Virus record (IMG/VR): IMGVR_UViG_3300020122_000155 | Coordinates: 1 to 64,000 of that record | Reading direction: 5' to 3' (one strand) | DNA length: 64,000 nucleotides | Source: a virus | The notes under the pieces: generated by a model | What the model was told of the DNA's origin: nothing | Database searches by the model: none | The model's input: the letters and a program-made list of their open reading frames with translations, nothing else | Position numbers and translations under genes: made by a program | Shown: positions 22,781-55,000 of the stretch, one piece after another | Position numbering within the stretch: the stretch's first letter is position 1 | Layout: each line of letters opens with the position of its first letter

Positions 22781-23734
22781 TCAGTTAGGGTACGTTTGCG
22801 CTTCGTGGTTCTTTCCGGTCGCTTCGTTCCAAGTCAACCGCTTGCCGACGATCTGCGATGCGGCCATCTTGAAGCGGTCAAAATCAGTCATCTCTTTGCG
22901 ATTGTTGTAGCGGTAGGCCTGTTCATCCAAGTAGCGGAACAGGTGGAAGGGCTCAACTGAAACGTAGGTGCCGCTGATGCCGCGCTTCAGGAGCGCCCAA
23001 AAGTTCTCGATGGTGTTGGTGTGTACGTTACCTTCCACGTAGCTTACGGCGTGATCGATGACCTTGTGTGCGTAGTCGCCTTCCAATCCCTCGTACGACA
23101 AAAGGAAATCGGTATAGAGCGCGGAACCAGCCTCGACGTGCTTCTTAACCTCTGCCTGCAAGGTCTTCTTGCGGCGATTCGGGACTACCACGGTGCGGAC
23201 CTTGCCGCCCCGTTCCACTATGCCGAGTACCGGAGTCTTGTCTTTTCCGCCAGTGCCAGTGATCCGGCGACGGCGCTGGGCAATGTGCATGTTCCGCGCT
23301 TTGCCGCCGATGAAAGTTTCGTCTGCCTCGACGTGGCCGCTTGCCTTCTCGACAGAGCCATCATGCAGAGCCATGCGAATACGATGGTTCATAAACCAAG
23401 CCGACTTCTGAGTTACTCCTAAGTCGCGAGCCATCTCGCACGATGAAATACCGTTCTTGCAGTTCACTACCAGCCACATGGCGCAGAGCCATTTGTCGAG
23501 AGAGATTGGGGAGCTTTCGAAGATAGTTCCAACCTTCAAGGAGAACTGGGCCTTCTCATGTTTGCCATAGCATTTGTAACGGTTCTGGCTTGCGAGATAG
23601 GCGACGTTCTTGGAGCCACAGTACGGACACTCGACCTTACCATCAGCCCAGCGAAGCGAAGCTAAGAACTCATTGCAGTTGGTCGGATCGGCGAAGTATA
23701 CGATTGCTTCTTGGAGGGTGGAAGGTAGCGCCAT
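22781..23734 (-). CDS. tnp: IS1595-family (ISXO2-like) DDE transposase
   Basis: N-terminal CPYCGS Zn ribbon, VEADETFIGG, LYTD, HTNTIENFW, YLDE..YRYN. Confidence 0.95.
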   Translation of the reverse strand: MALPSTLQEAIVYFADPTNCNEFLASLRWADGKVECPYCGSKNVAYLASQNRYKCYGKHEKAQFSLKVGTIFESSPISLDKWLCAMWLVVNCKNGISSCEMARDLGVTQKSAWFMNHRIRMALHDGSVEKASGHVEADETFIGGKARNMHIAQRRRRITGTGGKDKTPVLGIVERGGKVRTVVVPNRRKKTLQAEVKKHVEAGSALYTDFLLSYEGLEGDYAHKVIDHAVSYVEGNVHTNTIENFWALLKRGISGTYVSVEPFHLFRYLDEQAYRYNNRKEMTDFDRFKMAASQIVGKRLTWNEATGKNHEAQTYPN

Positions 23735-23903: not shown

Positions 23904-24623
23904 TCATGCAGTTGCTTTTATCGCTGGATCAACCCGATTATCCTGCGCGCTTTGCCCAGCTATTTTCGGAACCGGATTCGCCAACTTCAAGAAAGCCCGC
24001 GCGATTTCTTTCTGACCACACTTGCTGCCGTGCGCCTTAAGGTTCGCCCACACAACAGTTTGAGAGTCAAAGCCAAGGGCTATCTGCTCCGCCACCTGCT
24101 TTTCGGCAAGTACATCTCGCCGACACACCGGGCATAGCTTTAAAGCATTAGGACGATGGTACTTATTGCAGCGCAAGCATTGAATGTCATCCGCCTTTGG
24201 CCGCGCTCCAGCCTGCGGGATGTCGCACATCGGAACCGGCCTGATCGCCCCGGCAAATCTCCCTTTCGAAATCCGCTCCCGGACGATGAACCCATGCGCA
24301 GCCAACTCGATCAACGATTGCCGCGCCGTCCTAAGCGACGTATTGGACGAACCAGCCAGAACTTCCTCCGGCTCCTCGCACAAATCCTTGCCCGACCGCC
24401 AAGCGTAAAAACAGATCGCATCGTACACCGACTTAGCCGCGTGCGAAACCAGAGTTGAGGCCGTAATCGAGATCGGCTTTGCGCTCCACCCTTTGCGCAT
24501 TTCATCCGCCGTCAACCCGGCAGATTTTGCCGCGTTCAACCCGGCAAAATTTTCCGCGCATCTATTCTTTATTAGAGAAGAGGAAAATTTGGCAGCGGAC
24601 TTTTTCAAAGTGCTACCTTCCAC
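23904..24623 (-). CDS. HTH plus Zn-finger DNA-binding protein
   Basis: Winged-HTH-like SLRTARQSLIELAAHGFI; CLRC..CPVC. Confidence 0.45.
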   Translation of the reverse strand: MEGSTLKKSAAKFSSSLIKNRCAENFAGLNAAKSAGLTADEMRKGWSAKPISITASTLVSHAAKSVYDAICFYAWRSGKDLCEEPEEVLAGSSNTSLRTARQSLIELAAHGFIVRERISKGRFAGAIRPVPMCDIPQAGARPKADDIQCLRCNKYHRPNALKLCPVCRRDVLAEKQVAEQIALGFDSQTVVWANLKAHGSKCGQKEIARAFLKLANPVPKIAGQSAQDNRVDPAIKATA

Positions 24624-24801
24624 TTTTGCGGACCCTGCGTTTCTTCGATGTATGTCCGAAGCCGCCGCGCGAAAATTCTCCCCGGCGTTTCCTTCGTCCG
24701 GCGCACCGGTCGCTTCACATTCGCACAGCTTCCGCCGTGCGCCACCTTACACGCTATGCAAATAGCTTTCGCCATGCGTTTAGATGTGGTAACATTCATA
24801 T

Positions 24802-34117: not shown

Positions 34118-34444
34118 TTATCGTGCGGCCTTCGCTTTTCCGAGGCCGAGCTTGTTTTGCAAATCGGCCAACCGGCGCTGCGCTTCCGTGCGCTTCTCGC
34201 TGACCGTCTTGTAGCCTTCCAGTTCGGCTTCGAGTTCGCGCATCCGCGCCAGATCCGAAGCATGGGTACGCCGCTCAATCTCCGTGCGGAGCGTACTCTG
34301 CGCCGTCTGGAGCCACTGAGGGACCGGCAACTCCAATTCGGTGAACTCACTGTCCAGCGTGCGAGCCTCAGCCGACAACGCCACGGCATCCTCCAAATCC
34401 AGGAGCCGATCAACGTTCAACTGCTTTAGTGTTTGGATCGACAT
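34118..34444 (-). CDS. Coiled-coil hypothetical protein
   Basis: GAGGAG SD; helical. Confidence 0.6.
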   Translation of the reverse strand: MSIQTLKQLNVDRLLDLEDAVALSAEARTLDSEFTELELPVPQWLQTAQSTLRTEIERRTHASDLARMRELEAELEGYKTVSEKRTEAQRRLADLQNKLGLGKAKAAR

Positions 34445-34457
34445 TTTTCTCCTCTCC

Positions 34458-35045
34458 TCACCGCGACCTTGGCTTTGCGGTGATCGCTCTCAATTTGTCC
34501 AATTGCCTCACCAAGTCTTCGTTTGCATTCTGCGCCGCTGGCGAAAGATTCCCGACGCGCTTCATGTACTCGCCGGAATCAATCCAAGCTTCGTATTCCA
34601 TATTCCCGCGCGTTTTATTGCACTTCTTGCACGCCGAAACCAAATTGTCCTCGACCGTCGCGCCGCCATTTTCCCACAGAATCACATGGTCAACAGTTAG
34701 CGGAGCCTTAGCGCCGCAGTACCGGCAACGGTACCCGTCCCGCTCGAAGACGCGCCACGCCATCCACTGATCGATTTGTCGCTGGCTCTTACGGAGCACG
34801 GCTTTCCCCGGTCCCTGAACTTCGAGCACATCGCTCTGATTTAGGAATCGCTCCCACTCCGCGCCGTCCAGATTCAGAACTTCCCAAATATCGGTTAGCT
34901 CCTCATCCGGCAGCGGGACTACGAACGTCCGCCCCTCGCCGGTCCACACAGCACCGGCAAGCTGAATCGTATTCCCAATCGCCAGCAGGTCCAGTTGATC
35001 GAACGTCACCGGCTCCGAACTGATCGAGCACATTCTGGCGATCAT
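34458..35045 (-). CDS. HNH nuclease with uncharacterised N-terminal domain
   Basis: VFERDGYRCRYCG..LTVDHV..GG....NLVSACKKCNKTRG; ATGA overlap with the TROVE stop. Confidence 0.85.
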   Translation of the reverse strand: MIARMCSISSEPVTFDQLDLLAIGNTIQLAGAVWTGEGRTFVVPLPDEELTDIWEVLNLDGAEWERFLNQSDVLEVQGPGKAVLRKSQRQIDQWMAWRVFERDGYRCRYCGAKAPLTVDHVILWENGGATVEDNLVSACKKCNKTRGNMEYEAWIDSGEYMKRVGNLSPAAQNANEDLVRQLDKLRAITAKPRSR

Positions 35046-36574
35046 GCGTGCTGCACCAGCGCCGGTAAGACCTGATCCAACGTCACCAACGGGCACGCCA
35101 TGATCTTTTCGACCACGCCAAATCGCGAAGCATTCATCGATTGCACGATATTCGGGATGCTGTAATAATCCACAGCACCACTCGTCAAATCGAACTCCGT
35201 GAACTGTCGCCCGACGCTGCCCATAATCTGCCCGAACATCCGAGGGTCAGGCTGACCAGGAGGACAGAAAGTCCGGTAAAGATACGTTGGAAGTACCTTG
35301 CCGAACCGCTTCTCATAGGCTATGTGCGCCTGAGCGTAGTGCTGCGTATTTTCCCCTCCGTCGCCGACAATCGCCACGCCGTCAAGCTGCAACCCTTTTT
35401 CGATTGCCCATGCGAGCCCGACGCCGTAGGACGTATTACCAGCCGCGATCACTAGCTTAGTCCGCGCCTGTAACTCCTCCAGCGTCTTTCCGGTCGCCTC
35501 CATCGGCGTCACGTCCGAGTTACAGAACACCAGCCACACTTGCCCGGTAACGAACTTTGCGATAGCCGCTGCGATGTGCGTACCAAGCGCAATCGCCGTT
35601 TGCTGGCTTGCGCTACGGTCACAAATCACCAGCCAGTTGCCGTCGATCCCTCGCCCCGATTCCTTCTGAGCCTGAATCTGCCGCTCCTGAAGTTCCCGCA
35701 GCATCGTCTTCATGCTCTCGTCTTCGACTTCATCCGCCGCGACCGAGGTCTTAAGCGTAGCCTTTTTGCTCTTGGTCGCCTTCGATACTTTCTTTCGAAA
35801 GGCGTCTTTCAGCACGGCATCCTTGCCGACGCCGCGCTTCTCCAGACTTTTCGCGCGGCTGACGACTTCCGTATCGCTCATCTGATCCATCGTGGCCTGA
35901 ACGACCTTCGCATCGTCCTGCTTCGCCTTCGCGCCAGCAAGCGCCCCGCTGACCACCAGCGGAGAAAGATGCCACTTCTGAATCGCCGCCGCGACCTGCG
36001 CGGAATCCATCAGCTTCAAATTGGCGATGTCTGCAAAAATCGATCCGGGGAGATACTGAGCGCTGATCGGCTTCCGATTTTCCTTGTCCTGATTCTTGAA
36101 CAGCAACGCCGATGCCCACGGTGCCATTGGCGCATGGGTCCGCGCATACAGATCACGCAAGCTGCGCCGATGCCGCACCGCCAAGCGGTTCCACTTACCC
36201 GGCTCCGATTCCTTGACTGCCAGATAGCGCCGGATCGTTTTCTCCAGCAACTTCTGACGCCGCGCCGGAGCGCCGCTGTCAATCGAGAACTTCAGCGCCT
36301 TTACCAGTTCGCGCGGCGGCTGCATCGCAAGATGCGCCACGGAGTTCTCGACCAATTCATCCGGGAACTCTTTTGACGCCAGCGTGATCACTGGCAGCGC
36401 AATCTTCGTGTCCTTGATTTGCCCATTAACGAAATCGTAGGCAATCAAGTGCGCCATGAACTCGGCGTCCTCTTTGCACGCCTGCCCAATCACCGCGTTG
36501 TATTCTGTGAGTTTTCCGTGAACTGAGAGGTTAAGCTTGTTCAGGATTTCAGAGCGAACCAGACCTTTTTCCAT
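35042..36574 (-). CDS. TROVE/Ro60-like protein with C-terminal vWA domain
   Basis: EDAEFMAHLIAY and RRSLRDLYARTH.P resemble TROVE helices; MIDAS D.S.S (ICDRSAS) and GDGGEN; about 510 aa; adjacent Y-RNA-like genes. Confidence 0.75.
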   Translation of the reverse strand: MEKGLVRSEILNKLNLSVHGKLTEYNAVIGQACKEDAEFMAHLIAYDFVNGQIKDTKIALPVITLASKEFPDELVENSVAHLAMQPPRELVKALKFSIDSGAPARRQKLLEKTIRRYLAVKESEPGKWNRLAVRHRRSLRDLYARTHAPMAPWASALLFKNQDKENRKPISAQYLPGSIFADIANLKLMDSAQVAAAIQKWHLSPLVVSGALAGAKAKQDDAKVVQATMDQMSDTEVVSRAKSLEKRGVGKDAVLKDAFRKKVSKATKSKKATLKTSVAADEVEDESMKTMLRELQERQIQAQKESGRGIDGNWLVICDRSASQQTAIALGTHIAAAIAKFVTGQVWLVFCNSDVTPMEATGKTLEELQARTKLVIAAGNTSYGVGLAWAIEKGLQLDGVAIVGDGGENTQHYAQAHIAYEKRFGKVLPTYLYRTFCPPGQPDPRMFGQIMGSVGRQFTEFDLTSGAVDYYSIPNIVQSMNASRFGVVEKIMACPLVTLDQVLPALVQHA

Positions 36575-36582
36575 AAAAGTAA

Positions 36583-36704
36583 TGGCGGCATATCGGTCGA
36601 GCAATATCCCTTGCGGGACGGTTGGAGTCGAACCAACTACCTATTGATTTCAAGTCAATTGCTCTAGCCAAATGAGCTACGTGTACGTCGGCCAGTCGCC
36701 GCCA
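36583..36704 (-). ncRNA. Y-RNA-like tRNA mimic 1 (terminal stem replaces acceptor stem; anticodon loop UGA)
   Basis: UGGCGGC/GCCGCCA closing stem; D arm GCUC/GAGC; AUUGA-CUUGAAA-UCAAU; T arm GUUGG-UUCGACU-CCAAC. Confidence 0.8.
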
Positions 36705-36711
36705 AATTCGA

Positions 36712-36856
36712 AGGAAGTTATATCGGTGGACTTTAGTGCTTTTGGAACTGACGCTCTACCGTTGAGCTACTCCCCCATAAGTGTTTTGGGGGAAGAAGGG
36801 AATCGAACCCTCAACATTCAGTGTAATGGCGTGTATGTCCGCACAGTCAACTTCCT
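36712..36856 (-). ncRNA. Y-RNA-like tRNA mimic 2 (YrlA-type, opened at the anticodon loop)
   Basis: AGGAAGUU/AACUUCCU closing stem; order ACUGA, T arm (GAGGG-UUCGAUU-CCCUU), loop-closed acceptor, D arm, UCAGU-UCCAAA. Confidence 0.85.
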
Positions 36857-36894
36857 AACTCACTGCCCGCTAAACAACAACCGGGCGAACTTTA

Positions 36895-37053
36895 CGAGGC
36901 ATATCGATGGACCGTGTTTGCTGAATGCAACCTTAGAAGGGTTGTGCCTTAACCGTTAGGCTACTCCCGCGCTCATGGCTCAAAAAAGAGCAATCAGAGC
37001 GGGAGGCTGGAATCGAACCAACATATTTGCGTGTATGTCCGTCACTCGCCTCG
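36895..37053 (-). ncRNA. Y-RNA-like tRNA mimic 3 (opened at the variable loop; intact UCU anticodon arm)
   Basis: CGAGGC/GCCUCG closing stem; T arm, acceptor CUCCCGC/GCGGGAG joined by a hairpin, D arm, CAACC-CUUCUAA-GGUUG. Confidence 0.85.
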
Positions 37054-37060
37054 AAGAAAT

Positions 37061-37090
37061 AGATTACCTTGTTACCTCGTTACCTGTCAA
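37061..37090 (-). promoter_or_regulatory. Sigma70 promoter of the Y-RNA/TROVE operon with three AGGTAA direct repeats
   Basis: TTGACA-18nt-TAATCT; predicted start coincides with the 5' end of RNA 3; AGGTAA repeated with an 8-bp period. Confidence 0.7.
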
Positions 37091-50359: not shown

Positions 50360-50443
50360 GCTTCGGTAGCTTAAATGCTAGAGCGACCGGCGATCCTCAC
50401 GGGTTGTCGGTAGATGGTGGTGAAAGGCCATCCCGGAGCACCA
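50360..50443 (+). ncRNA. tRNA-like RNA with extended 11-bp arm and 4-nt loop, with CCA end
   Basis: GCUUCGG/CCGGAGC-A-CCA; ACCGGCGAUCC-UCAC-GGGUUGUCGGU; T arm GGUGG-UGAAAGG-CCAUC. Confidence 0.8.
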
Positions 50444-50565
50444 TCATTTTTTTCTTGCAAATATTCTGGATCTGGTTATACTTTTTACTATCCCGCAAGG
50501 ATAATTTTAGCGATAGCCGCCAGCCTTGATCTGGCGGCATATCGCCAGCCTATCAAGGAGGCTTT

Positions 50566-52168: not shown

Positions 52169-52859
52169 AAAAGCTGGCGTGTTTGCTCGGATTCCACGAC
52201 CACGAGATAACCAGAAAGTTCTTTTGGGGCAACGTTCATCGTGCGGAATTGCATTGCAAAAACTGTGGGAAACGGTTCGAGGGTATGGCCTGCGACGGGA
52301 TCAACGTTGGCTATGTCGTTGCGGCTCCTTGCCCGTCCGATATTTGGCTGGCGTATGATCAGGGGCATTTTCGGGACGGTGGCGCATGACGTTCACTGAA
52401 ACCGCAGCCGCCATGCGCCGATTGGCAGACGGCATCGACAAAATCGTGAAGCAACAAGGACACGACGCGGAAACAGGCAAGCCGAAGCCGATGCTCGACG
52501 GTGAAGCTGGAGTTGGCGGAGCGGCGCTGCTTTGCTACCTGCGGGATTGTGTGACGACGGCGGGACGTGATTCGTGGGACCGGCCAACGTTGCTGGTTTT
52601 GCTGGAGACGATCAGCCGGGATGCGGAGATTTTTCCTTGTGGCGTTGGTGCAACGATGTGGGCGGCGGAGGACGAAGATGCCGAAGTTTAAGACTTGCAA
52701 AAACTGTGGATCGGCTGAGGATGTCGGAATCTTCGTTCGCAACTGTCCAGGATGCGGCGCGAAGTATGAGCCGGATGAATGCACCTGTGGCCTTCACCTT
52801 GGAGAAAAACTAAAGCCGTATGTGGTGCCGACGATGGAAGAGATTCTGCGGGAGAAAAA

Positions 52860-53837
52860 GTGAACGAAGAACAAGAACTAGCCGGACTACTTGAGCAGCA
52901 CAATAATCAGCCGCCGCGACCGAGCAACGTCGAGCTAGCGTCATCGCCGCCGATGCGAACCGGAACCGATGTCGATTTCGCCCAGTGGCAGATTCTTTCG
53001 AACGGGAAGTATCGGCCAGGAGCAAAGACGCGAGAGAAGCTGCCTGCCGCCGTCTACCGCGCCGGTCAGGACGATTTCGGCCCGTTCCTGGAGCTAATCA
53101 GCCTTGTCTCTGACGACTTCGTAGAGCTTCCAGAACCGGCGCATATTCGCGTACTCGACGGCATTCGAAAGTTCTGGCGGTCGCGTGAGCGTTACGAAAA
53201 ACATGGCCTGTTGTATAAGCGCGGCGTGCTTTTGTGGGGACCTCCAGGAGCCGGGAAAACGGTGTGCATTCACCTGCTGATGGCGGAGATCGTCAACAAG
53301 CATGACGGCATTGTTCTGCTGGCTGACAATCCCGATTTGACGGTGGCCGTCCTGCGATTCTTCCGCCGCATCGAGCCGACGCGCCCGTTGATTGTTGTGT
53401 TCGAGGACGTGGACGAAACCGTGAACCGATTCGGCGAACACTCCCTGCTTGCGGTACTCGATGGAGAACACCAAACGTCGAACATCGTCTATCTGGCGTC
53501 AACCAATTACCCGGAGCGCCTTGGTGCGCGGATCGTCAACCGTCCTTCGCGCTTCGATGAACGAATCAAGATCGGTATGCCGTCGAGCGCAGCGCGGATG
53601 GGGTATCTCAAAAAAGCGATAGGGACCGGCGATGTGAATGTCGAAAAATGGTGCTTAGAGACGGACGGAATGAGTATCGCGCATCTTCGCGAGCTTGTGG
53701 TTGCGGTGCTCTGCTTGGAGCAGGATTATGAGACTGTTCTTGCTCGGCTGAAGGCGATGGAAATCATGCCAAAACCGGAGGATGGATTCAAACACGCGAA
53801 GTTTGGACTCGAAAACGCAATGCGTGGTTTACGATGA
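52860..53837 (+). CDS. AAA+ ATPase
   Basis: RGVLLWGPPGAGKT, VVFEDVD, STNYPE.L...RPSRFD. Confidence 0.9.
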   Translation: MNEEQELAGLLEQHNNQPPRPSNVELASSPPMRTGTDVDFAQWQILSNGKYRPGAKTREKLPAAVYRAGQDDFGPFLELISLVSDDFVELPEPAHIRVLDGIRKFWRSRERYEKHGLLYKRGVLLWGPPGAGKTVCIHLLMAEIVNKHDGIVLLADNPDLTVAVLRFFRRIEPTRPLIVVFEDVDETVNRFGEHSLLAVLDGEHQTSNIVYLASTNYPERLGARIVNRPSRFDERIKIGMPSSAARMGYLKKAIGTGDVNVEKWCLETDGMSIAHLRELVVAVLCLEQDYETVLARLKAMEIMPKPEDGFKHAKFGLENAMRGLR

Positions 53838-55000
53838 ACGAAGCCGACTTGAAGATAATCGCCGAGCGCGAGGAGCGCGAAAAGACGCCGTGGATGTGGT
53901 GGCACTGGCAGAACCTCAACGACAAAAAGGGCGGCGGTCAAGGCTCTGGTTTGCGCCACGGTCGATGCTGGTGGCACTTCCGCACGAAGAGTCGCAGGCC
54001 AGGGCCAACAATCCAGTTCTCTTGGAATCTGTGGTCGCATTTTTGCGGCATCGGAGTTGACTGGGACGACGAGGATTTGACGTTCAGCGCCGCGTTCCCG
54101 CCGTTCGCGTTCTGGCTGTCGCTAAGCACAAATTTCGCGTGGATAGACAAGATCCTGCCGCACAAGGTTCTGTCGCCAAACTACCCGGACACCATCGTTG
54201 TCGATAAGCGCGAGATCGCGATAAAGATCCACAACGGCTGCGTCTGGATTCATCCATATTCGAAGTCGATGGAGTGGGTGAAGGCCGATCCGTGGTGGGT
54301 GCGTGGGGTCAGCTTCAGCATCAATCCGTTCGAAGCAAAACATCAGCGCCATGAAGTCCGGCGCGCCGATGGTTCTTGGGTGCCTTACGTCGGATCGTGG
54401 GAAGTTGGGCCGAGTCGCGGAGAGGGAATCGGCGGGCAGTTAGGTGGGAAGGAACCGGACGGACGCGAAGAGTTCAAGTATCCGTACACCTACGTTCGCA
54501 AAAACGGGGAGGTTCAGCAGCGAACGGCTACGGTGTTTGTTGACCGGCGTGCATGGCGTCCACGGTGCCTTCAGTGGACTTCGCTATTCGAGGATCAGCG
54601 CCAGTGCATCGACGTTTCCTTTGACGACGAAGTGGGCGAGCGCAGCGGATCGTGGAAGGGTGGCGCGGTCGGGTGCGGCTACGAGATGCTTCGCGGCGAG
54701 ACGGCGGAAGAGTGCTTACGGCGCATGGAGCGCGAGAGGAAATTCTTGATGCGGTACATCGTAATCTTTCAGCAGGTAGTCGGGAATTGGGAAATCTGCT
54801 ACTCGTGGGACGGCGAGAAGTTCACGAACTACATCGATGCGAGGAGCCACGGATTTGAAACGCGCGGTTCGGATGATTTCAATATCGGAGTTTTGAAAAA
54901 CGGACGCCTGATTTCATTTCGGTGGATGGATGAGGTTCTCGACTTTCCACTTTGCGAGATCGCGTTGCACATCGGACTGAAAGCGAACAAGGCAGCGTGA
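53834..55000 (+). CDS. Trp-rich hypothetical protein (possibly two fused genes)
   Basis: 388-aa ORF; junction ..MERERKF-LMRY.. Confidence 0.55.
   Translation: MNEADLKIIAEREEREKTPWMWWHWQNLNDKKGGGQGSGLRHGRCWWHFRTKSRRPGPTIQFSWNLWSHFCGIGVDWDDEDLTFSAAFPPFAFWLSLSTNFAWIDKILPHKVLSPNYPDTIVVDKREIAIKIHNGCVWIHPYSKSMEWVKADPWWVRGVSFSINPFEAKHQRHEVRRADGSWVPYVGSWEVGPSRGEGIGGQLGGKEPDGREEFKYPYTYVRKNGEVQQRTATVFVDRRAWRPRCLQWTSLFEDQRQCIDVSFDDEVGERSGSWKGGAVGCGYEMLRGETAEECLRRMERERKFLMRYIVIFQQVVGNWEICYSWDGEKFTNYIDARSHGFETRGSDDFNIGVLKNGRLISFRWMDEVLDFPLCEIALHIGLKANKAA

Follow-up and report, generated by a model that had tools for sequence, protein, structure and literature searches.

What three tRNA-like RNAs, each assembled differently, are doing directly upstream of a phage gene is the question raised by a locus on the minus strand (37053-36583) of a 64,000-nt stretch of viral DNA, positions 1 to 64,000 of IMG/VR record IMGVR_UViG_3300020122_000155. 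This stretch, referred to below as the window, is part of a complete virus genome of 105,065 bp with direct terminal repeats. A preliminary description, made by reading the sequence, had proposed that the RNAs mimic tRNAs in the manner of Y RNAs, built on a terminal module common to all three and each joined to its tRNA body at a different place, and that their neighbor is a TROVE gene. We followed the locus into related viruses and found a conserved and covarying terminal handle, three recurrent ways in which tRNA bodies are wired to it, and a directional linkage of the RNAs to a gene for a protein with the Ro60 fold. We think it likely that the three RNAs, which have a handle in common, are modular, Y-RNA-like partners of a divergent Ro60 that the phage itself encodes.

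Three RNAs share one terminal handle

The units stand head to tail, with spacers of 38 nt (RNA 3/RNA 2) and 7 nt (RNA 2/RNA 1). They are listed here in order along the minus strand together with the evidence for each; the wiring types and the covariance models R1 and R2 are described further below.

37053-36895, minus strand: RNA 3 (type C), 159 nt; read from the sequence, minimum free energy (MFE) fold, model R2
36857..36894, minus strand: RNA 3/RNA 2 spacer, 38 nt, with a small hairpin CGCCCG...CGGGC; read from the sequence
36856-36712, minus strand: RNA 2 (type B, YrlA-like), 145 nt; read from the sequence, MFE fold, sub-threshold Rfam YrlA match
36704-36583, minus strand: RNA 1 (type A), 122 nt; Rfam tRNA match, model R1

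The hairpin in the longer spacer is possibly a processing site. All three RNAs carry the 5' element GA(G/C)-UG(A/U/G)...(G/C)GAC-(A/G)UACACG and the 3' element ...A(U/C)CGAUAU, the latter directly before the closing strand. The closing stem, P1, is fully paired in every unit and differs in sequence from one unit to the next (CGAGGC/GCCUCG, AGGAAGUU/AACUUCCU and UGGCGGC/GCCGCCA). The inner pairing is GGAC/GUCC in RNA 3 and RNA 2 and CGA/UCG in RNA 1, a compensatory difference. On the positions, the shared elements, the differing stems and this compensatory change, the preliminary description was exact. Covariation analysis showed that the inner pairing which it described and the helix that we had called P2 are one 8-bp helix. 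The handle therefore consists of P1, a 3x4-nt internal loop (GAC or GAG on one strand and AUAU on the other in the window), the 8-bp helix, and UACACG. The helix begins with a conserved U.G and a G-C pair, often has a mismatch in its middle, and ends in a G-C or C-G pair just below UACAYG.

MFE folds computed without constraints reproduced the architectures of RNA 3, where every helix was recovered (z -4.25), and of RNA 2 (z -2.44). The fold of RNA 1 (z -2.03) retained P1, the anticodon arm and a capped hairpin that is described below. Toward the gene, the units of the window are ordered C-B-A (37053-36583); in the closest relatives, loci L003 (2446-2983) and L002 (2560-3000), the order is A-B-C. 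Since the order is reversed between the window and these relatives, the units have been shuffled as cassettes.

The handle recurs and covaries upstream of homologous genes

We fetched 71 viral loci encoding homologs of the protein encoded downstream of the array, 62 of them non-redundant, and scanned them with a motif-plus-pairing detector. It found 189 units, 184 of which lie upstream of the gene and on its strand, in a region that makes up ∼40% of the sequence searched. In control scans of the 62 loci, 156 units were called on the gene strand, compared to 8 on the opposite strand and 9 after shuffling. A single array can contain as many as 8 units, with up to 8 different heads. Segmentation distinguished 154 units, namely 41 of type A, ∼14-19 of type C, at least 7 of type B, 48 with only a T-arm, and 39 without a tRNA feature, which tend to lie nearest the gene.

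The handle was tested with 500 shuffles of a structure-blind MAFFT alignment of 40 type A (normal-order) units. In the proposed structure 89% of the cells were paired, compared to 64% in the shuffled alignments and 33-44% when the partners were slid against each other, and none of the 500 shuffles reached the observed value. Double, compensatory changes were present at all 7 P1 pairs and at 7 of the 8 inner-helix pairs. In the tRNA portion, too, each of the stems had support from covariation. An independent test of the inner helix gave 2.93 of 4 positions paired versus 1.95 ± 0.07. Together with the recurrence in the 62 loci, these data bear out the earlier proposal of tRNA mimics on one shared terminal module.

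Two covariance models, the kind of check that the preliminary description had suggested, extended this result. R1, built from the 40-unit alignment, matched 61 units at ≥64 bits across the loci; within the whole 105-kb genome its sole match was RNA 1 (105.1 bits, E 4e-26). The ordinary free-standing tRNAs of the loci matched R1 in its core only (model positions 24-95) and lack a handle. R2 describes the permuted core (T-arm, closed acceptor, D-arm, and anticodon arm) of 17 seed units; it was confined to this core because type C units, when aligned over their whole length with MAFFT, matched poorly toward their ends. The seeds were 96.9% paired, 18 of the 21 pairs covaried, and R2 gave 23 matches in 20 loci at or above its cutoff of 60 bits; below ∼55 bits it also matches the junctions of ordinary tRNAs. 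Run in local mode, R1 missed the handles of both RNA 2 and RNA 3, so that no single handle model results.

All three wirings recur. Each class has its own conserved core, with the D-arm GCUC..GAGC in type A and GCC(U/G)..(A/G)GGC in type C. A separate conserved tRNA core for each class fits a few separate captures of tRNAs rather than one, in agreement with the independent captures proposed earlier.

The internal loop varied in a different manner. Its 3' strand is AUAU in the window and ACUU, ACUA, ACAC, AUUU, AUCC or ACCU elsewhere (ACUA in L012, for example), and its last 2 nt were identical in 88% of unit pairs from the same locus versus 34% of pairs from different loci. The likeness of adjacent P1 stems was 47% within a locus and 40% between loci. 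The detector rewarded only a general CGAYUU pattern, and the locus-specific loop was thus not built into the search. Units that differ in stem and wiring keep the loop of their locus, which points to a common, locus-encoded reader for the RNAs of one locus.

An independent test of the linkage came from an outgroup locus, L073 (LR756511.1 282262-290713), which belongs to a 595-kb uncultured "huge phage," encodes a protein with 25% identity, and was used in no model. Its unit at 2275-2397, a handle-borne tRNA(UGU) located ∼1.1 kb upstream of the gene, scored 72.8 bits with R1. The Ro60-linked RNA family is widespread and common in uncultured phages of 50-600 kb.

The tRNA bodies are wired to the handle in three ways

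In RNA 3, the order of the parts is T-arm, a 7-bp closed acceptor stem whose loop contains a small hairpin, D-arm, and an intact anticodon arm (CAACC-CUUCUAA-GGUUG, anticodon UCU), and the handle is joined at the position of the variable loop. R2 matched this body at 37022-36928 with 74.4 bits. The variable-loop attachment and the intact UCU arm were both part of the preliminary description, and both the fold and the model agree with them.

RNA 2 runs from the T-arm through a closed acceptor stem to the D-arm and has no anticodon loop; the two strands of its anticodon stem (UCAGU/ACUGA) instead run to the handle. The attachment on the anticodon side, placed at the anticodon loop in the preliminary description, and with it the topology of the bacterial Y RNA YrlA, were thus noted earlier. 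The UCCAAA that had been taken for a remnant of a Trp-like tRNA is a linker, which may or may not derive from such a tRNA. R2 scored 44.5 bits on RNA 2. The Rfam YrlA model gave 32.5 bits (model positions 23-85), below its gathering score of 69; with this model RNA 1 had a spurious 15.7-bit match and RNA 3 had none, and neither the window nor 20 related loci had a match that reached this threshold. The two recurrent wirings other than that of YrlA are therefore not covered by Rfam and extend the class, as had been proposed. Separately, we observed that the T-arm-to-D-arm part of RNA 2 (36811-36742, minus strand) aligns with an Aeromonas phage at a place where a tRNA-Gly and a tRNA-Ala gene adjoin (OP380604.1 167798-167868); the alignment, of 79.7% identity, spans their junction. 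It is consistent with the published proposal that derives permuted Y-RNA heads from tandem tRNA genes. In a blastn search of deposited phages, the locus matched in tRNA-like stretches only.

In RNA 1 the arms follow the usual tRNA order, the D-arm first, then the anticodon arm (loop CUUGAAA, anticodon UGA) and last the T-arm, and the Rfam tRNA model matched it with 52.1 bits (model positions 5-66). The preliminary description had placed the junction at the acceptor stem and noted the UGA loop; both hold, with the correction that the handle is attached through a three-way junction located within the acceptor. Of the acceptor itself a 3-bp remnant (ACG/CGU) is left, and the outer acceptor is replaced by the GNRA-capped hairpin CCCGCAAGGG.

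A full cloverleaf that has both a 7-bp acceptor and a free 3' end is formed by some units in relatives but by none of the window RNAs. ARAGORN called no tRNA at the array, and a second Rfam tRNA match (36788-36970) is a chimera of the 5' half of the RNA 3 body and the 3' half of the RNA 2 body. The three RNAs expose different faces of a tRNA. RNA 1 presents the elbow together with the anticodon arm, its acceptor being capped; RNA 2 presents the elbow and the closed acceptor, and RNA 3 the whole L-shape including the anticodon loop.

The adjoining gene encodes a protein with the predicted fold of Ro60

The downstream open reading frame (ORF) begins with an ATG 8 nt downstream of RNA 1.

35042..36574, minus strand: Ro60-like protein, 510 aa, HEAT-repeat ring and C-terminal von Willebrand factor A (vWFA) domain; AlphaFold2, Foldseek, VIA-align

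The protein had no match in Pfam (even at E 10), in PHROGs or in a phmmer search of PDB sequences, and it has >180 metagenomic homologs. Weak vWA matches were present among 43 sampled members of the family (VWA_CoxE in 19, VWA_2 in 12), and the best match of the family profile against the PDB was a "TROVE domain-containing protein" at an E value of only 0.058. The AlphaFold2 model (mean confidence score pLDDT 85) was more informative. The top 12 Foldseek matches were all Ro60, Rsr or the Ro60 of phage phiLo, with E values of 5e-8 to 2.5e-6 over 471-535 columns. VIA-align gave Z scores of 15.3-19.1 against ten Ro60 entries (root mean square deviation 4.7-5.6 Å over 412-440 residues), compared to Z ≤ 14 over ∼160 residues against proteins that consist of a vWA domain only. 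A DxSxS motif of the MIDAS type (an adhesion site that depends on metal ions), with D319, S321 and S323, is invariant in the 43 sequences, as are T381 and D405, which presumably belong to the same site. Judged by its model, the protein is a very divergent Ro60-like ring protein by fold and not a TROVE member at the level of sequence.

Core operon and a probably mobile neighbor

Gene neighborhoods were obtained with tblastn on the fetched loci. The following features flank the array and the Ro60-like gene in the window.

37061..37090, minus strand: promoter-like site, TTGACA (37090-37085), 18-nt spacer, TAATCT (37066-37061); read from the sequence
34458..35096, minus strand: HNH endonuclease between the Ro60-like gene and the small ORF; Pfam HNH, E 1e-12
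34118..34444, minus strand: small helical protein, 108 aa; tblastn recurrence and alignment

Transcription from the putative promoter TTGACA-N18-TAATCT is predicted to start at about the first base of RNA 3, and a similar TTGAC(A/G)-N18-TA..(C/A)T precedes the arrays of L003 and L001. The small protein, with conserved P(E/D)W(L/V) and (T/P)xxE(K/R)R motifs, was found by tblastn in 39 of the 71 loci and lies directly after the Ro60-like gene in at least 34 non-redundant loci. It had no Pfam or PHROG match, and a search of the protein atlas returned generic helical look-alikes only. The core operon is composed of the RNA array, the Ro60-like gene and the gene for the small helical protein. An HNH gene separates the last two only in the window, L002, L003, L007 and L017. 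Homologous HNH genes are also present in L027 (2557-2949), L055 (1953-2498) and L021 (2496-2945). Across the loci, they lie either in the gap that precedes the small ORF or in the one that separates the array from the Ro60-like gene, and many loci have none. Because its position varies and it is often absent, the HNH gene is probably a homing-type mobile insertion and not a core part.

Some relatives carry complete tRNAs in the handle

Type A grades into real tRNAs. Among the 40 aligned units, 12 have an insert of 4-6 bases after UACAYG that fills out the acceptor to 7 bp; these units match the Rfam tRNA model at positions 1-71 and are named by ARAGORN. In all, ARAGORN-callable tRNAs were present in 26 units of relatives, several of them with an encoded CCA, and their types include Met(CAU), Phe(GAA), Glu(UUC), Thr(UGU) and the suppressor-type anticodons UCA (opal reading) and UUA (ochre reading). 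Examples, mostly CCA-encoded, are as follows.

L022 1380-1509: complete tRNA in the handle (UCA)
L043 819-945: complete tRNA in the handle (UUA)
L061 1934-2069: complete tRNA in the handle (CAU)
L071 2556-2680: complete tRNA in the handle (CAU)
L041 1122-1252: complete tRNA in the handle (GAA)
L001 1835-1960: complete tRNA in the handle

In complete units, the handle is the leader-trailer duplex of a pre-tRNA, and the predicted RNase P site falls inside the conserved UACAYG. RNA 1 of the window is of the other kind, in that it lacks the acceptor insert (as do 19 of the 40 type A units) and has the GNRA-capped hairpin (present in 23 of 40). In type C units the acceptor stem is perfect over its 7 bp, and the loop that closes it begins with ACCA in some of them.

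Among the anticodon loops, 35 of 41 in type A and 14 of 19 in type C retain U33 and R37. The anticodons displayed on them vary, with 19 kinds in type A and 11 in type C. UGA (Ser) is the most common (7 of 35), two type C anticodons are UAA (Leu), and AAU (three times), ACU and AAA are odd for decoding.

Relation to known Y RNAs and permuted tRNAs

YrlA (RF02553) is a tRNA mimic with a T-arm, a D-arm and a closed acceptor, encoded upstream of a Ro60/Rsr gene (PMC4201824; 10.1101/312249), and lacks an anticodon loop (10.1101/312249). The window RNAs resemble it in lying just upstream of a Ro60-like gene and in having ends that pair into a stem with an internal loop, and the wiring of RNA 2 is exactly that of YrlA. 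RNA 1, in normal order and joined at the acceptor, and RNA 3, joined at the variable loop and bearing an anticodon arm, are wired otherwise. The family differs from YrlA also in its handle signature (an NAC/AYNN loop, a helix starting U.G-G-C, and UACAYG), in the intact anticodon stem-loops of types A and C, in its arrays of 3-8 units, and in that some units are complete CCA-ended tRNAs. The array with its Ro60-like gene is a variant of the known Ro60/Y-RNA particle, with wirings at the acceptor and the variable loop that are not in Rfam.

For the orientation of RNA 1, Deinococcus radiodurans Yrn1 is a weak published precedent. It has a D-like arm, an "anticodon arm" and a T-arm, with the Ro-binding stem on the acceptor side, but it is only weakly tRNA-like, with a partial D arm, a 6-nt loop and no variable arm (PMC4201824). 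The Rfam tRNA model, in contrast, gives RNA 1 a score of 52 bits and matches type A relatives up to full length. A second precedent is Thermus phage phiLo, whose Ro60 binds the upstream Yrl1 and Yrl2 RNAs and host PNPase (PMC12135203; PDB 9KOP, 9L5Y). Both systems have a phage Ro60 of low identity with tandem partner RNAs directly upstream, and the phiLo Ro60 is among the structural matches of the window protein. The phiLo Yrls, however, are stem-bulge-stem RNAs with a CGAA motif, and tRNA-like heads or permuted wirings are not described for them (PMC12135203). In a Listeria phage, three very abundant noncoding transcripts lie upstream of an Rsr-like gene recognizable by HHpred only (PMC12282133). 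This phage is not a detectable relative, and its transcripts indicate that such arrays can be highly expressed in phages.

The order of RNA 3 also recalls the permuted tRNA genes of algae and archaea, in which the 3' half precedes the 5' half and the acceptor is closed by a loop; those genes yield ordinary tRNAs through a circular intermediate (PMC3978253). The ends of RNA 3 are, in contrast, held by the handle beside the Ro60-like gene. Bacteria are not known to have a splicing endonuclease for a route through a circular intermediate.

A related design is present in phage Felix O1 (L074, NC_005282), where two unannotated RNAs occupy a gap in the tRNA array (24480-24720). Each has a 7-bp stem followed by (A/U)UACAGCAA, and the second encloses a permuted T-arm/D-arm core. 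They share with the window family a terminal stem and, next to it on the 5' side, a conserved single-stranded motif starting with (A/U)UACA, while the remainder of the RNA varies. Their handle, however, is one stem only and lacks the internal loop and the second helix. R1 matched only ordinary tRNAs in Felix O1 and not these two RNAs. They lie ∼1 kb downstream of ORF42, annotated as an "RNA-binding protein," and the hhalign comparison of ORF42 with the Ro60-like family was weak (probability 29%, vWA region). We treated the two as related designs and not as one family. The 11-nt motif of dictyostelid Class I RNAs probably also contains UACAGCAA. Those RNAs likewise combine a short stem with this motif; they come from eukaryotes, have a length of 42-65 nt, and associate with an RRM protein by binding it (PMC7919456). 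In the literature we found no description of Y RNAs joined at the variable loop, of intact anticodon arms on Y RNAs, or of complete tRNAs in a Y-type handle, although earlier mention in reviews is possible.

Other features of the genome

The genome encodes a large terminase, an Acb3-like inhibitor of the CBASS defense system and a DUF932 protein. Features of the window away from the array are as follows.

22781-23734, minus strand: DDE transposase, IS1595 family, inside the complete phage genome; Pfam, E 9e-44
50210-50283, plus strand: tRNA with anticodon CUA, called tRNA-Pyl by ARAGORN
52779-53837: AAA ATPase, adjoining the gene with the Acb3 match
53834-55000, plus strand: Acb3 (CBASS inhibitor) protein; Pfam, E 1e-36

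The CUA tRNA is the single ARAGORN-callable tRNA of the complete genome and, by its anticodon, looks like an amber suppressor. Directly after it, within 50286-50470 (plus strand), we noted weak matches to both models, with 17 bits for R1 (50343-50470) and 22.8 bits for R2 (50328-50411). A check of the genome for stop-codon recoding gave no sign of an alternative code.

What the RNAs may do

As partner RNAs of a Ro60, the three units would be made as follows. One promoter would drive a single transcript of the RNA array, the Ro60-like gene, in some loci the HNH gene, and the gene for the small protein. RNAs of ∼120-160 nt would then be cut from it, as Mycobacterium smegmatis YrlA and YrlB are cut from one precursor that comprises the Y RNAs upstream of rsr (PMC4201824). 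The handle would serve as the docking site for the Ro60-like ring, and the tRNA-shaped heads may be the ends that recruit effectors, by analogy with RYPER and with the phiLo Ro60-Yrl-PNPase complex (PMC4201824, PMC12135203). On the resulting ribonucleoprotein, the heads could engage host proteins that recognize the tRNA shape or anticodon loops, which would be tied to the Ro60 ring, or kept from it, during infection.

Several observations weigh against assigning the array to a Ro60 particle. The preliminary description had named the neighbor a TROVE gene, and while the Ro60 fold stands, the domain assignment does not, as Pfam TROVE (PF05731) matched none of the 43 sampled family members at E ≤ 0.01. 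Because Pfam TROVE misses the protein, its binding of RNA is argued from similarity of fold alone. The Ro-binding motif GNCGAAN0-1G is absent from the 5' strand of the family consensus (stem-NAC-UGA), where the CGA core lies on the 3' strand instead; the window 5' strands come closest with GGCGAGUG in RNA 3 (1 mismatch), GUUGACUG in RNA 2 (2 mismatches) and GGCGACUG in RNA 1 (1 mismatch). A generic consensus promoter scan did not call the proposed promoter. Finally, we found no cultured phage with the family; among 50,697 deposited phage genomes, tblastn gave a single, distant match, which is L073.

A specific version of the Ro60 explanation is that the bound RNAs sequester, or signal the presence of, anticodon nucleases of the host and other defense effectors that cleave tRNA, with anticodon stem-loops displayed by RNA 1 and RNA 3 and the acceptor and elbow by RNA 2. 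A decoy or repair function against anticodon nucleases had been put forward in the preliminary description, where it was speculative, and we regard the decoy as possible but rather doubtful. The retained U33/R37 geometry, the diversification of anticodons, some of them odd for decoding, on conserved D/T scaffolds, the number of different heads in one array, and the presence of another antidefense gene, that for the Acb3-like inhibitor, speak for it. Nothing links the RNAs to any nuclease, however, classic nuclease targets are not enriched (the commonest anticodon being UGA), and about half of all units have no recognizable anticodon arm. The repair branch is weakened further, since we found no RtcB, Rnl-type ligase or other RNA_ligase family member in the complete 105-kb genome. 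We consider it distinctly unlikely that the RNAs are instead caged or permuted pre-tRNAs, in which the handle is a leader-trailer clamp, binding of Ro60 gates maturation of the embedded tRNA, and RNase P opens the 7-bp acceptor of types B and C or frees type A to give working, possibly two-piece tRNAs, suppressors included. The callable and CCA-encoded tRNAs in relatives, the predicted RNase P site in UACAYG, the perfect type C acceptors with their ACCA loops, and the cleavage of M. smegmatis YrlA by RNase P and its receipt of CCA in vivo (PMC4201824) are what one would expect of such precursors. In the window, though, no RNA amounts to a complete tRNA, RNA 1 being reduced to a hairpin-capped 3-bp remnant, and nearly half of the type A units share its lack of an acceptor insert. 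The genome has one ARAGORN tRNA and fits the standard genetic code, and the unusual A34 anticodons argue against decoding.

The handle might also be a mere processing or stability element of phage tRNA operons, comparable to the leader-trailer stems of rRNA operons, with the proximity to Ro60 a consequence of shared tRNA islands. In many loci the Ro60-like gene does lie among ordinary tRNA genes (191 free-standing tRNAs in the 62 loci), the handle is a leader-trailer duplex, and some units hold real tRNAs. Those 191 tRNAs have no handle, however, and there is no tRNA island at the window locus, where array and gene nevertheless stay together. The units devoid of tRNA features, the locus-specific loop variants, and a linkage that persists at 25% protein identity are further points on which this explanation fails, and we regard it as very improbable. 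As a long shot, the handle could be a universal adaptor by which the ring carries changeable tRNA-shaped heads, some of them latent tRNAs and others baits for defense enzymes. Type C units and the complete type A units of relatives (including UCA, CUA and UUA) would be the latent tRNAs, to be opened by RNase P and set free only as Ro60 allows, and the phage would in this way control tRNA supply or even stop-codon read-through. Heads that cannot be matured, including the three window RNAs, would bait host defense enzymes that target tRNAs.

Implications

Since 2014 it has been an unanswered question why the Y RNAs of bacteria should mimic tRNA. The family described here amounts to a natural experiment on it, in which one handle and one protein are combined with a tRNA body attached in three ways. 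With anticodon loops that diversify, an elbow that stays fixed, and a series that reaches CCA-ended tRNAs, the face of the tRNA that matters becomes directly testable, and Felix O1 offers a cultured system for a related design. The clade of Ro60 proteins is invisible to Pfam, and its RNAs are missed by current pipelines or miscalled as chimeric tRNAs. If the heads engage host enzymes of tRNA-directed defense or maturation, they would represent a new layer of the conflict between phages and their hosts over tRNAs.

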